IMG/VR virus record: IMGVR_UViG_2700989521_000009
Origin: a virus
Lineage: Duplodnaviria > Heunggongvirae > Uroviricota > Caudoviricetes
Length of the DNA: 35,161 nt
Reading direction: 5' to 3' (one strand)
Each line of letters opens with the position of its first letter. Positions within the stretch are counted from its first letter, which is position 1. Position numbers: made by a program. Below are positions 3,001-9,000 of the stretch, one piece after another.

Positions 3001-6000
3001 GCACACTGGATTCGTCAACCAGTGAATCGCTTAATGAGGTCGACAAGCGCATCACTAAACTGGATAAAGAAGGCGGTGAGGCGTTTCTGGCAATGTGGTC
3101 AAAAAAAGCGGGAGTTGATGGTATCACTGCGGGGATCGGGATTGTCGCCGGAAAAGACAGTGAAGGCAGGCCTGTAAGTCAGGTTGCAATTTCTGCGTCG
3201 CAGTTGTTTGTCTTTGACCCGAACAACCCGGATAACACCGCCTATCCGTTTGCGGTATCAGGTGGCAAGGTTGTGATCCCGAAAGCGATGATTTATGACG
3301 CGGTGATTGAAACACTGGTGTCGCGGAAGGTTGTGGCGGATGAGGTAAAAGCCGGGGTAAGTATCACTTCGCCAGTTATCCGGAGTGCCGTTATTCAGAA
3401 CGGAAACTTTCAGGTTGATTCTCAGGGTAACCTGAATATTGGAGGCCTTTTCAGTGTTACGTCACAAGGGCAACTGACAATTCGTTACTCTAATCAGAAT
3501 GTAGGACTGGTGATCCGCAATGATAAAATTGAGGTTTATGATCAGAATGGACGACTGGCTGTTCGCATAGGCAGATTACGCTGATCAGGAGGTGAGTATT
3601 GGAATACGGTTTTGCCATTTATAACAGAAATAACGTTAATGTTACGGGCGTGCTGACTCCGGTATTTTTCCTGGACAGATTTACAGCGGAGTCTGGCTCA
3701 AAGACGTACACGAATAAACCCGACGGGAAATCATTGCAGGCTGTATGTTGTTTATTTCCCTGGAATAATGTATTTGCGGATCGGAAAGTACCGAAGATAA
3801 CCATTAATGGCAATACGGTGACGTGGTCGAATCTTGAGCAGGGTATGGGATCTTATATTTATACATTCTGGGGATAAGTGTCATGTATGGTTTGAGCATT
3901 ATGAAGCCGGATGGCAGCGTATGGATAAGTCCAGGTTTTACGCCGCAGTGTCTGATCAACAAAGGCACCATACCGGCGACTGAAAAGTCTTTTTTTAAAA
4001 CATCAATCCCGTCAGGCAAAAGTTGTTTTTTCTTTATCAGAACAGAGAAGAAGGCCGATGTCATGTACACGCATGAACAGATTGATGGATATCATGCACT
4101 AAGGCTTCATGTAATTGTCAGGGGAACGAACCCTGGTGTTACGACGGTTTATGCTTTCGCGAATATGGTTACTCCACCTTCTGAGTATGGTATCGCCATG
4201 TATAACCCGGACGGTGAGATGATTTATCATGGCGAAATGATGCTGCTTGACGCGAAGTTAATACCTGTTGATATCAAATTTGAAAAGGACCTTGGATATC
4301 CATGCGCAATCATGCCTGCACTGGTCGGGTATTATAACTGGAAAAGAACTCCTTATGATCGACCGATTTATACCACATCCACTGGTGCTACAGGAAATAA
4401 AATATATTCCTGTGAGCATTATTCCGGTGGTGCAACATGGGATATTCGAAAGCCGTATATAGATAAGGTCTTGGTTATTAATACAGCAATGTATGATTAA
4501 TAAGAAAATCTACATTAATAAAAACTTTTTATCATATCAATGCAATATATTTGATTTATATTAAATAAAGGAAAATCGCACATTACTGTACCTTTTAATA
4601 ACAGGAATAATCTAAAGATGAAAAATATTTATAAGATTATTGCGTGTGCAGTTATTGGGACGAGCATGGTAGCCATGCCAGCACATGCAGCAGAAGGAGA
4701 CCATACAATTTCTCTGGGGTATGCGCACTTTCAGTTTCCGGGACTGAAGGATTTTGTAAAGGATGCGACTGCTCATAACAGGGAGACTTTCAGTCATTTC
4801 GTCAACAGAAACTACTTTTCTTCATTGGGCGAATATACAGATGGTCGGGTCAGTGGATATGAAGGCAAGGATAAAAATCCACAGGGCATTAATATCAGGT
4901 ATCGCTACGAGATAACGGATGATTTTGGCGTTATCACCTCTTTTACATGGACGCGTTCTCTCACTAACTCACAGACATTTATTGATGTGCAGTCAGCCGA
5001 TCATAGCAGGAAGATTAAGAATCCGGCAGCTTCTGCCAGAACGGATATCAGGGCGAATTACTGGAGTCTGTTAGCGGGGCCTTCATGGCGGGTTAATCAG
5101 TACATGAGTTTATATGCGATGGCAGGGATGGGCGTTGCTAAAGTTACCGCTGACCTGAAAATTAAGGACAATATTAACAGTAGTGGTGGATTTTCTGAAA
5201 GCAACAGCACGAAAAAAACCTCCCTTGCGTGGGCTGCAGGTGCACAGTTTAACCTGAATGAGAGTGTTACTCTGGATGTGGCTTACGAAGGTTCCGGCTC
5301 TGGCGACTGGCGCACGAGTGGCGTTACTGCTGGCATTGGCCTGAAATTCTGACCTGTATCCGGTAACCGTTTACTACCCGCTGTGATGGCGGGTTTTTTA
5401 TTGTCCGTACAGGGCAAAAATCGTAAATTATGCGTGGGTGCCTTTCGGCTGATGGCTGGAGGGTGAACCTGAAGGCCTGATGTGGAAAGGCCCCGAGTCA
5501 ACCTAACGTTAACCCGAGGCCCTAACACTTCGTACCTTAAGCAAGTAGAAGGTTAGCGCCTCTCTGTAAAAGGAGTCAAGCGCTATGTCGCAAAAATCGC
5601 TTATCACCGTCACAATTTGCATGACGGTTATCTTCACCATCTGGATGTTGCACGGTTCACTGTGTGAGTTCCGGCTGAATTTGTGGGGAGCGGAGTTTGC
5701 AGCGTTCTTACAGTGTAAGCAGTAGGAAAACCGCGACGGGGACGAAAGTCCCCGTCAACTGGTTGCTGAGGTTCAGCCGATATGGCACCCGTTTCAGGTG
5801 AGAGAATGAACGATAAAATTCTCCGGTATATGCAGCGTGTTGTGAGAAATTCCCGCAACCCTGAATTTATGAATGAAGTTAAAGACGCCTGCCTTAAAAA
5901 GCAGGCGTTTTGTTTTGAGGCACCTGATGGCTTTCTGGTGCTGCGTTCTGTGCTCAGTGCTGATGGTATCCCTTATGTTCTGGTGTTGCTGGGCGTGTGT

Positions 6001-9000
6001 ACGGGGAGTAACAGCGTTGAGCGTTATCTGCCGGAGGTGAAGACATTAACCCGTCTGGCTGGCGGACGTTGGGCTGAATTTCATACGGCAAGGCGGGGAT
6101 TTATCCGGCTGGGAAAACGTCTGGGCTTTGAGCGAATGCCGGATGATGAGGATGGCTTCATGGTGTTCAGGATAGCGGTCTGACTGCCACAGTATTCATT
6201 ATCGTGTGTAAACCAATTGCAATTCACATTCTGACCCTGCCCCGGCAGGGTTTTTTGTTATCCAGGGGGGGCCATTATGGGTGGAAGTAAAGGCGGTGGT
6301 GATACCAAAGTAAAACCAACAGCAGCGCAAATAGCACAGGAAGAAGTGGCCTGGAAAGGGTGGCAGGATTACAAAAATATCCTCCGCCCGGCTGAAGATA
6401 ACTTCATGGAAAAGGTCGATGACCTTAACAGTGAGCAGCAGTACGACAATATCGCTGGCACAACAAATCTGGGTTATCAGAAACAGTTTGGTGAAGCGCG
6501 AAGGGAGCTGGCGGGTAATCTTGCTCAGTCCGGTGTTGACCCGTCCAGTGGTCGCTTTAACGCGGTAATGAATGCGAACCAGAGTGATCAGGTAACCGGG
6601 CAGATTGACACAACCACACGGGGGCAGGTATCGCAGGCAGATAAGTATGTTGCCGGGCTACAGGATGTTGCAGCTCTCGGTTCAGGTCAGAAGGCGGATG
6701 CGTTACAGAGTTTTAACTCGCTGGCAGACAGCAGTCTGGCAAAAGCTAAATCGGACGCACAGGCTGCGTTTACGAAACAGCAGGGGCGAGCCTCTCTTGT
6801 TGGCGCTGGTTTGGGTGCGGTAGGTGCATATGCGATGCATAAGGCTGGTGGTAGCGGAGGAAGTGGCGGTGCTAAAACACCTGGCACCGGCGCTAATGCC
6901 ATTCAGCATCAGGCTCAGAACTGGAGACTGTGATTATGGAGTACGGTAAATACGAAACACTTGCAAGATACGGTTATACCGGAGCAGCCCGCCCTCAGGG
7001 GGACTGGCAGGCATCCGCAGCGCTGACCCGCCAGCAATACGACGACTGGCGCACCAGATATTTACCCCGTGTAGCAAGGCTGGCTGACCTTGGCGAGAAC
7101 AACAGCCTGATGAATGCACAGCTTGCCCGGGTGGGCGGCCTTGCCACTTCCAGTCTCCGTACAGCGCAGATGGCGCAGGATAACCAGATGGCGAGATACG
7201 GGGTAAGCCGCCCGGATAATCCCGACAGTAATACGCTGGGGTTACGTAATGCCCTGGCAATTGCTGGTGCGAAAAATGGTATCCGTGAAGCCGAACAGGA
7301 TCGCCAGATGAACATACTGACGGGGGCTTCTGCACCTGCAAGACAACAACTGAGTGTTGGCGGTCAAATGATGACAGCGTAAGGGGGAAGATATGGGGTA
7401 CGGCTTACTGGATATTGCGAATCAGTCACGGCGTGAGGCATTACAGGGAATAAGTGACGCAGACCGACGACGTGAAGAAATTGAGGCTGCGAACAAACAG
7501 ATGGCGGCGCAACAGAAAGCGCAGAACAAGCAGAATATCGGTACGGGCATTGGTACGGGGGCGGCTATTGGCGCATCCGTTGGTGGTCCTGTTGGTGCTG
7601 TTGCTGGTGCAGTAATTGGCGGCATTGCTGGTTCTTTGTTTTAAGGAGTGGTGAATGAGCGGATTTGCACAGGGGTTACTTGCCGGATTCAGCACCGTTG
7701 ACCAGGCAATGACCCGTCGTAAGGAGCTTGGTCTGCGTGAAGCACAGCTTGCCCGGCAACAGAAAAATAACGAGCGCGATTTTGAATTTGCGCAGTCTCA
7801 GTTTGAGCACCGGAAAGAGAATGATCAGCGTACATATGATCTTAATGTCAGGAATGCTGACCGTGAATATGCGCTGAAAGAGAGGGAACACAAAGCAGCG
7901 CAGAATTATCGAAATGCGTCACTGGGTATGGAGCAGCAGCGACTCCAGTTGCAGAAATACAACCAGCGACGGCTTGAGTATAACGATATGCTGGCGCGCG
8001 ATCAGCCTGTGATGGCTGCGCTTGGAAAGGCTGTGGATGCTGGTGATCGGGATGCGGCAATGCGTCTTTACGGGCAGTTGTCAGAGGGTAATCCGCTGAG
8101 GCTGATGGCGAATGATGGCTATGCAGCGAAAGCGGGGCAGGCCGTGAACAACCTGCAGAAAATCTTTGATGATAAGCCGGACAGGGCGATTGCTTCGCTG
8201 AATACCCCGGAAAATCTCGATGTGCTTTCCGGCGTGTTTGCCCCGGAACTACAACAGCGTATTGGCATGCCTGATTCAACCGGGGAAAAGACAATAAAAG
8301 AGGCCAGGATTGGCAGTATCGTACCGGCGCAGCAGGAAGGGTACGTACTTATTGGTCTTGATCTCACATACAGCGATGGCTCCACCGCGCATAAACCTGT
8401 AACAGAATACGGCAGTGCACATCCTGATGATCAAACCGTGCTGGCGATACCCGTTGATAAGGCTGTCGCTCTTGTCAGGGATCGCAGTAAATTCGCGGAA
8501 ATTTCGAAAAATTACGGTTATTTCATGCCGAAGCAGCAGGGACTTTCTCTGAAAGAGCTTCAGAAGGGGGCCAGCAACGTAGCGGCGGAGGCGATCAAGA
8601 ATGGCGGTAATGCTCAGGCTGCGGTGGATGAATATTATGCTGCGACTGGTTCACAACCGCATCAACAGAAAATTCAGCAACAAAAACTTCAGCAACAGGT
8701 TATCAACTGGGCGGGAGATGATCCTGATAAGCTGTCATTTGCCAGAAATGTAGCGGCCCGTCAGCCTGAAATGCTGGAACCTCAGAATCAGAAATTGCTG
8801 GAGAACGGGTATGCGAATTTTCTCCGTATTCAAAAGGCCAGGGGGGAACAGGCCAGAGATGAAAGTGCTTCATCTGCATCTCAGTTTATCCGTGGACTGA
8901 AACAGAATTACGCCCAGTAATTCACGATATTCCATTAATACCATTTCCTGATGCCCGGCCATTGTGCCGGGTTTTTTTATGGAGTCTGTATGGCCTATTC

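Follow-up and report, generated by a model that had tools for sequence, protein, structure and literature searches.

In phage lambda, it is established that transcription terminators are read through by antiterminated RNA polymerase. Terminators inside the late operons of lambdoid phages have been described already, with their roles stated as unknown, and for the P22-like phage L the internal terminators of the late operon are predicted and a design based on processive antitermination is discussed (bioRxiv 10.1101/2020.10.05.325894). Here we analyse a stretch of 35,161 nucleotides from a Caudoviricetes phage (IMG/VR record IMGVR_UViG_2700989521_000009), the whole of which is termed the window, in which four hairpins with adjoining T-runs are found between the outer-membrane protein gene lom and a giant gene of 8.4 kb. 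We name them T1 (after lom), Tint (inside the small gene ORF133), T2 (between ORF133 and gene 1) and T3 (between gene 4 and the giant gene). We consider it likely that they are Rho-independent terminators which punctuate the far end of a lambdoid late operon under Q control. Like lambda tR' and the terminators downstream of it, and like those of phage L, they include canonical sites in intergenic gaps of a single-promoter, Q-controlled late operon. Unlike those, the terminator at the junction of gene 4 and the giant gene is recognisable in phages of E. coli, Aeromonas and Vibrio alike, with turnover of its sequence, and one site lies within a coding sequence and is kept by compensatory non-synonymous changes; these properties are known here from sequence.

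Shigella phage POCJ13 (Sepvirinae) and a prophage of Escherichia coli 2009C-3133 match positions 4400-9400 with 100% identity, and Shiga toxin (Stx) phages of the 933W/Sp5/phi24B type do so with about 96%; 189 phage records match. To judge from these matches, the window is a short-tailed Stx phage of the 933W/Sp5/phi24B type. A homology search with the gene 4 protein returned, among its best 120 matches, solely E. coli proteins of at least 80% identity. Distant relatives were found by tblastn against phage records and by alignment-seeded locus scans; they comprise Vibrio phages D460 and 1.205.O, Aeromonas phage phiARM81mr and about 40 loci from IMG/VR and GTDB, the latter with gene 4 identities of 22-42%. 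The order tail-tip gene, ORF133-like gene, genes 1, 2, 3 and 4, gap and giant gene is kept in them.

Predicted intrinsic terminators between lom and the giant gene

Under a strict definition of a terminator (stem of at least 6 bp with at least 5 G-C pairs, and at least 6 T in 8 nucleotides), the plus strand of positions 1-17400 contains four sites, compared to a mean of 0.087 and a maximum of 2 in 300 dinucleotide shuffles, and all four fall within 5376-8978. A loose scan gives no overall excess (24 sites found vs 19.6 expected); the enrichment is limited to the canonical class. All four sites possess a G+C-rich stem-loop of about 5-12 bp with a short loop and a T-run directly 3' of the stem, as intrinsic terminators do. 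The stems measure 8 bp in T1 and in T2 (5 G-C pairs each), 7 bp in T3 (6 G-C pairs) and 10-11 bp in Tint (6 G-C pairs), and they are followed by T6, T6, T7 and TTTTGTTTT, respectively. Minimum free energies (MFE) of segments of 41-44 nt are -11.3 (T1), -14.6 (T2) and -15.4 kcal/mol (T3); the compact hairpins alone range from -9.6 to -11.3 kcal/mol for T1-T3 and from -9.6 to -12.7 kcal/mol for all four sites. In Rfam, the region has no match at gathering thresholds, and at E values up to 1 it yields only a sub-threshold sok match and terminator-like noise.

Hairpins with T-runs after lom, before gene 1 and before the giant gene had been reported in an initial sequence-only reading, and all three are present where it placed them; Tint is a fourth strict site which it overlooked. 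The same reading put T3 11 nt before the ribosome-binding site (RBS) of the giant gene. This distance applies to the ATG (8990), as the T-run ends only 2 nt before the GGAG (8981-8984). Its description of terminators standing directly in front of start codons holds for T3 and for T2, the T-run of which ends 20 nt before the ATG of gene 1 (6277), and fails for T1, which is best read as the 3' end of a lom moron and not as placed for the next gene. By their anatomy, T1, T2 and T3 can be predicted to be genuine Rho-independent terminators; that transcription actually ends at the four sites we infer from anatomy, excess, conservation and covariation taken together. Covariation is found in T2, T3 and Tint, while the stem of T1 is invariant and hence uninformative.

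The strongest conservation of position is seen at the junction of gene 4 and the giant gene. Among close relatives, the T3 stem shows changes from G-C to A-U and from G-U to A-U or G-C, 95.9% of cells are paired and two pairs are changed on both sides; a slid partner gives at most 50%. By an automatic rule, 33 of 41 distant loci have a terminator at this junction, compared to 20 of 320 control windows (6%) from the same loci, and several more are visible by eye. At least six unrelated hairpin sequences occur there, all followed by a T-run, for example GCCCGC-ctagt-GCGGG in Vibrio, GCCCCGAACGG-ttcg-CCGCTCGGGGC in Aeromonas, and AACCGC-tgat-aGGCGGTT. Whatever the hairpin sequence, the T-run at the T3 position is kept in every lineage. 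Since the position is conserved while the hairpin sequence turns over, these alignments provide good evidence that termination at this junction is under selection. The recurring junction terminator in distant Aeromonas, Vibrio and metagenomic relatives is new here.

The lineages that share the hairpin and T-run of Tint, at the same codons of ORF133, include E. coli and Aeromonas. The two arms change together: GCCTGCC/GGCAGGC (encoding A-C...K-Q-A) stands against GCCATCC/GGGTGGC or GGATGGC (A-I...R-V/M-A), and further versions of the arms occur in loci L091 and L103. These paired substitutions alter the protein, from Cys to Ile and from Gln to Val or Met. In a set of 22 distinct sequences, including three with the hairpin lost, 87.9% of cells are paired, 23 cells are double changes and the covariation score is 0.307 vs 0.160; none of 500 shuffles reaches the observed values and slid controls remain at or below 58% paired. 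Third-codon positions are nearly invariant inside the arms and variable outside. Taken together, the alignments point to an intragenic hairpin that is kept by compensatory, amino-acid-altering changes, which is new here.

ORF133 itself likely starts at 5806 rather than at the annotated 5782. The annotated start falls inside a closure element of the hokW mRNA (see below), and the match to PHROG_610 begins at residue 9 of the annotated protein. ORF133 shares 42% identity (E 1e-30) with p64 of Aeromonas phage phiARM81mr and 25% identity with the Vibrio phage gene preceding gene 1. ORF133 together with T2 was considered as a moron and rejected, as homologues stand directly before gene 1 in Aeromonas and Vibrio phages. 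By homology and position, ORF133 is the conserved first gene of an ancestral module. T2 is shared by the E. coli clade and three mid-distance lineages (L080, L082 and L084) that are without lom and hokW; L080 and L082 carry a compensatory change from C-G to A-U. In the Aeromonas clade T2 is absent, and the gap between ORF133 and gene 1 there measures 3-14 nt.

The exact hairpin and T-run of T3 (CCCGGCCATTGTGCCGGGTTTT, window 8954-8975) also occur on 69 IMG/VR contigs (loci L123-L191), the flanks of which represent at least 27 unrelated contexts, and an identical hairpin follows the portal gene of phiARM81mr (L122, 30211-30228); often an RBS and ATG again follow closely. Two controls with the same stem and shuffled loops gave 0 matches. 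When the stem was combined with any 6-nt loop, the loops among the matches listed follow CAnnG[C/T]. The recurrence of this hairpin could reflect a spreading cassette or a loop preference.

The inserted lom and hokW/sokW cassette

Morons are taken here as defined in PMC3594210; lambdoid examples are the HK97 and HK022 morons and lom and bor of lambda. Position-weight scanning of the plus strand between 4401 and 9100 places a candidate promoter upstream of lom (Table 1). With this promoter and T1 as its own signals, expression in the lysogen (PMC3342100), a base composition that deviates and its status as extra DNA compared to related phages, lom behaves as a moron. In phi24B, lom expression measured by quantitative PCR (qPCR) was about as high in lysogens as in induced cells (PMC3342100). 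The G+C content falls to 33% at 4300-4750, and it is 33-45% in the lom/hokW stretch vs 50-58% downstream. Both lom and hokW are absent between the tail-tip gene and ORF133 in L080, L082, L084 and the Aeromonas and Vibrio phages. Because these distant relatives have ORF133 but neither lom nor hokW, and because the dip in G+C fits, the inserted cargo consists of lom and hokW/sokW, with T1 as part of it. The stem of T1 is unchanged in 45 related loci while the neighbouring spacer diverges.

The likeness to lambdoid morons thus covers lom, with its AT-rich upstream region, promoter-like site, own terminator, G+C content below that of its neighbours, expression in the lysogen and absence from relatives that keep the flanking genes. 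It ends there: only T1 fits the pattern cleanly, hokW appears to have no private terminator and probably borrows Tint, and ORF133, a moron by layout, is actually a gene of the ancestral module.

In Sp5 lysogens, hokW mRNA and sokW RNA are present before induction and form a functional type I toxin-antitoxin pair (PMC8621323). The window carries features of such a locus. An Rfam sok match (RF01794) begins at 5436 with 33.6 bits and E 4.6e-5, below the gathering threshold of 59 bits. The predicted 5' end of the hokW mRNA (5431-5470) pairs with an fbi-like element (5757-5795) in a duplex of -38 kcal/mol, which lies at the 0.14th percentile window-wide, and the same pairing closes the MFE fold of 5436-5918; we regard it as a closure of the hok type (tac/fbi-like). 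Directly past the hokW stop, a hairpin at 5734-5757 (-23.6 kcal/mol) is found without a T-run. Since Tint is the first terminator downstream of the closure, hokW transcripts of Stx phages probably end at Tint. The Hok/Gef peptide, the antisense RNA promoter in the leader and the long-range closure between 5' and 3' end are shared with type I loci such as hok/sok of plasmid R1 and hokW-sokW of Sp5. For the present question, the relevance of these loci is limited to why T1 fronts the hokW promoter and which terminator ends the hokW mRNA.

Three published names, 24B_1, SokW and EcOnc53, appear to denote one antisense RNA. The 'microRNA-size' 20-nt RNA 24B_1 of phi24B (sequence from PMC4426718) maps to 5492-5511 with one mismatch, and the promoter proposed for it is the sokW promoter just upstream of hokW. 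EcOnc53 of E. coli O157 Sakai coincides with the SokW region after a correction of about 142 nt between versions of the Sakai record. In the current record, its start coordinate equals the lom stop, and a position on T1 was considered and rejected: because the northern probe maps to 5544-5578 (sense to the plus strand), the peak is on the minus strand and the offset is about 142 nt, EcOnc53 belongs to the SokW region. The probe covers mostly promoter, which may explain the result 'not detected'.

Late transcription and possible roles of the terminators

POCJ13 encodes a Q-like (gp32) and an N-like antiterminator. On its plus strand, Q is followed by stx and then by lysis, terminase, head and tail genes, with genes 1-4 and the giant gene at the far end, a one-strand block of 38 kb, so that a Q-type gene lies upstream and the late genes are contiguous, as in a Q-dependent late operon. 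In the position-weight scan, no credible sigma-70 promoter was seen in the gap from T2 to gene 1, in that from T3 to the giant gene or within genes 1-4. Because T2 and T3 leave no room for a promoter and none is credible within genes 1-4, transcription of genes 1-4 and of the giant gene is predicted to come from upstream and to cross the terminators. In phi24B, qPCR linked expression of the giant gene (CM7, 49148-57571) to induction (PMC3342100); among these distal genes, the published measurement covers the giant gene only.

We propose that in the lysogen ordinary RNA polymerase would start at the moron promoters of lom and hokW. T1 would end the lom transcript and shield the hokW/sokW cassette, the promoter of which abuts T1, and the hokW transcript would close on itself at about 5795 and probably end at Tint. 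T2 and T3 would be further barriers, so that unmodified polymerase would not reach genes 1-4 or the giant gene, and leak-through and spurious starts would be blocked. After induction, Q-modified polymerase from pR' would pass every terminator (T1, Tint, T2 and T3), as lambda biology suggests, and the virion and infectivity genes would be expressed from the far end of the late transcript. In the sequence-only reading, the pattern was taken to fit genes that are silent in the lysogen and expressed by antiterminated late transcription. For the giant gene, this agrees with its induction-linked expression (PMC3342100), the Q-like gene and the lack of a credible promoter of its own. It does not extend to the stretch from T1 to T2, which holds the lysogen-expressed hokW/sokW (PMC8621323), or to the constitutive lom (PMC3342100).

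The genes behind the terminators have phenotypes in Sp5. In-frame deletions of ORF79 (gene 4) and ORF80 (giant gene) gave no plaques and no lysogenisation, and both genes are essential for infectious particles; an ORF76 (gene 1) mutant was strongly impaired, this gene being needed for full infectivity (PMC5155283). Without ORF79 or ORF80, DNA packaging was normal and no tail-fibre antibody bound, and the authors assigned both to tail formation (PMC5155283). The giant protein contains the Pfam domains LPD38, LPD5, LPD1 and MuF_C and has a DarB-like PHROG match, as in the virion-packaged polyvalent proteins that carry LPD domains, among them DarB of phage P1. MuF_C and LPD domains are typical of such proteins, which is consistent with a late, virion-delivered protein. 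P1 DarB is dispensable for particle formation. In this, the giant protein differs, being essential for infectious Sp5 particles (PMC5155283). Virion mass spectrometry in one paper reports head, tail-fibre and 'virion structural' proteins only, and a literature search on ECs1242, the giant gene of Sakai, returned genetic and comparative papers only. A late or virion function instead of a lysogen-expressed defence module, as suggested from sequence at first, is supported by the knockouts and the domains.

Several observations weigh against this account or narrow it. Q and pR' lie outside the window, and read-through by Q is transferred from lambda and 933W biology. None of the four sites (T1, Tint, T2 and T3) appears in a list of small RNAs from Hfq crosslinking in enterohaemorrhagic E. 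coli (EHEC) Sakai. In a few close relatives the Tint stem has single changes that are left uncompensated, and Tint is absent from the Vibrio lineage and from L087 and L088. Furthermore, the terminator at the T3 position is shared by Vibrio phages, for which a Q-type system would have to be assumed, and is followed there by a promoter-like TTCACC-17-TATGAT; lysogen insulation therefore may not be the sole or original role of this terminator.

A terminator placed after abundantly needed genes can set the dosage of those downstream. T-phi of phage T7 is leaky and favours capsid mRNA over downstream genes, which are expressed by read-through; it acts on T7 RNA polymerase without an antiterminator. 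By functional analogy, T3 and perhaps T2 and Tint might be leaky and lower the transcription of the giant gene relative to genes 1-4 in lytic growth. Here an antiterminator is involved, unlike in T7, and partial termination at T3 is hypothetical. Dosage control is compatible with insulation and may co-exist with it; we regard it as possible rather than probable. It would account for a junction terminator in distant phages regardless of what lies upstream, and the T-run, being always kept, suggests that termination itself and not merely a hairpin is selected. By analogy with lambda, however, Q-modified polymerase should largely resist terminators, and the effect in a Q-driven transcript is expected to be small. 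Nor is the giant gene singled out, since terminators also lie between head genes of the same operon. A role in dosage was raised for the intra-operon terminators of phage L as well (bioRxiv 10.1101/2020.10.05.325894).

In the same prophage (L001), the portal gene and the gene behind the capsid gene are each followed by a canonical terminator (3556-3579 and 6397-6415), and in phiARM81mr (L122) terminators at head-gene junctions are found at 30172-30231 (two in tandem after the portal gene), 30603, 31666 and 33405. In 41.7 kb of phiARM81mr examined, nine strict sites occur on the plus strand, mostly in the late region. The pattern is a property of these late operons and nothing specific to the giant gene.

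A more ambitious reading joins Tint and T3, and we offer it only tentatively, as rather unlikely. According to it, termination at Tint, at the entry of the module, and at T3 would be selected strongly enough to shape a protein. Tint would be a translation-sensitive checkpoint that stops untranslated or non-antiterminated transcripts and is erased by a closely following ribosome or by Q. The T3 hairpin would belong to a widespread family (CCCGGC-CAnnG[C/T]-GCCGGG-U run, before start codons in dozens of unrelated phage contexts), either as a spreading cassette or as a structure recognised by a factor.

Returning to Rho-independent termination as the preferred reading, the hairpins might instead act as barriers to 3' exonucleases after endonucleolytic cleavage and stabilise upstream RNA segments, without any termination. 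Stable stem-loops at intercistronic positions and conserved pairing would suit such elements. A stability element, however, would not need the T-run, which is kept directly 3' of the stem in every lineage even where the hairpin is replaced, and T1 stands at the end of an independently transcribed moron; in view of the conserved T-runs, pure RNA-stability elements are unlikely.

That the sites generate small RNAs, for example one of about 90 nt from the promoter-like site 5791-5819 to Tint, or RNAs derived from 3' untranslated regions and ending at T1 or T3 like StxS at tR', we hold to be very unlikely. The site has the second-best promoter-like score; transcription would begin there within ORF133 and meet the Tint T-run about 90 nt further on, as in a small-RNA layout, and Stx prophages make Hfq-bound small RNAs from terminated transcripts (PMC7547250). 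But no Hfq-crosslinked candidate lies at these coordinates, the nearest, EcOnc53, being the antisense SokW region, and by eye the Aeromonas homologue has no matching promoter upstream of the Tint hairpin. Finally, that genes 1-4 and the giant gene are separate units with own promoters, whose terminators just end the preceding units, is suggested by the Vibrio promoter-like site between terminator and giant gene and is nevertheless highly improbable, given the 11 and 20 nt left after the T-runs of T3 and T2, the lack of a credible promoter upstream within genes 1-4 and a gap of only about 25-28 nt after the terminator in Aeromonas.

Gene order, neighbouring features and significance

The features of the region are listed in Table 1. 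Genes 1-4 are tightly packed (intergenic gaps of 2-10 nt) and equal ORF76-79 of Sp5. In E. coli O157 Sakai, the equivalents are ECs_1236 (lom), 1237 (ORF133), 1238-1241 (genes 1-4) and 1242 (giant gene), which correspond to ORF74-80 of the Sp5 knockout study, and the Sakai Sp5 prophage has all four hairpins, too. In record NC_002695.2, they are located at 1292410-1292433 (T1), 1292919-1292952 (Tint), 1293269-1293292 (T2) and 1295986-1296011 (T3); positions in NC_002695.1 are lower by about 142.

Table 1. Positions of genes, predicted terminators and promoter-like sites in the window
Feature	Position	Strand	Description
Tail genes	616-4500	+	
Candidate lom promoter	4534-4562	+	ATATCA-17-TATATT; third-best promoter-like site in 4401-9100; moderate match only; AT-rich spacer
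lom	4618-5352	+	Ail/Lom outer-membrane protein; Pfam Ail_Lom, E 1e-33
T1	5376-5399	+	Stem 5376-5394 (ACCCGCTGTGATGGCGGGT) and T6 to 5399; starts 24 nt past lom stop (5352)
Candidate hokW promoter	5401-5429	+	TTGTCC-17-TAAATT; best promoter-like score in 4401-9100; abuts T1 directly
Antisense SokW RNA region	5492-5546	-	24B_1 small RNA (5492-5511) and Hfq peak EcOnc53
hokW	5585-5725	+	Toxin gene (Hok/Gef family); Pfam HOK_GEF; PHROG MokW-like
fbi-like 3' element	5757-5795	+	Pairs with hokW mRNA 5' end (5431-5470)
Promoter-like site	5791-5819	+	GTTTCA-17-TAAAAT; second-best score in 4401-9100
ORF133	5806-6183 (annotated start 5782)	+	Small gene; 125 aa from 5806
Tint	5885-5918	+	Hairpin 5885-5908 and TTTTGTTTTG; inside ORF133
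T2	6233-6256	+	Stem 6233-6252, T-run to 6256; between ORF133 and gene 1
Gene 1	6277-6933	+	Sp5 ORF76
Gene 2	6936-7382	+	
Gene 3	7393-7644	+	Gly-zipper
Gene 4	7655-8920	+	Sp5 ORF79
T3	8953-8978	+	Stem 8953-8972 (GCCCGGCCATTGTGCCGGGT) and T7 to 8978; between gene 4 and giant gene
Giant gene	8990-17371	+	Polyvalent protein, 2,793 aa; 8.4 kb; RBS GGAG 8981-8984; RefSeq ATG 8990; Sp5 ORF80/ECs1242

The interval from lom to gene 1 looks like an insertion hot spot because of differences in length, a replacement and a mobile element. In some close relatives (L009-L012, L032, L040 and L048), T1 and the gene 1 region are about 1.6 kb further apart than in the window, the T2 region of L032 is replaced, and one E. 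coli genome (H26) has an IS21-family element in the stretch from lom to gene 1.

In Rfam, sRNA-Xcc1 is matched twice on the minus strand (21355-21440 and 21891-21975; 74.5 and 53 bits, with a gathering score of 53), both times in the leftward early region that lies downstream of the giant gene. In phiARM81mr, the block of virion genes includes a gene annotated as retron-type reverse transcriptase and a gene for a '23S rRNA-intervening sequence protein' (L122, 36971-38604). At the 5' end of the giant gene of the same phage (L053, 6118-7975), about 1.8 kb appear to be missing from the annotation; an open frame from MDKPGL, about 25 nt past the terminator, is continuous with the region matching residues 279-408 of the giant protein of the window.

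The observation that terminators stand in front of these late genes is correct but largely ordinary, as the design, with virion genes that are reached by antiterminated polymerase only, is a known one. What is modestly new is that T3 is conserved in position, that the intragenic Tint covaries and that ORF133 is reassigned. For annotation, the stretch from lom to the giant gene of Stx phages is to be read as the tail end of an antiterminated late operon and not as a lysogen defence island, with one inserted, lysogen-expressed cassette of lom and hokW/sokW. With terminators flanking genes of known knockout phenotype, one junction terminator conserved in position across distant lineages and one intragenic terminator showing covariation, the module offers a tractable test case. 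More speculatively, leak-through in lysogens into membrane-active virion genes or the giant gene, or altered late expression, could affect the cost of prophage carriage and phage yield.

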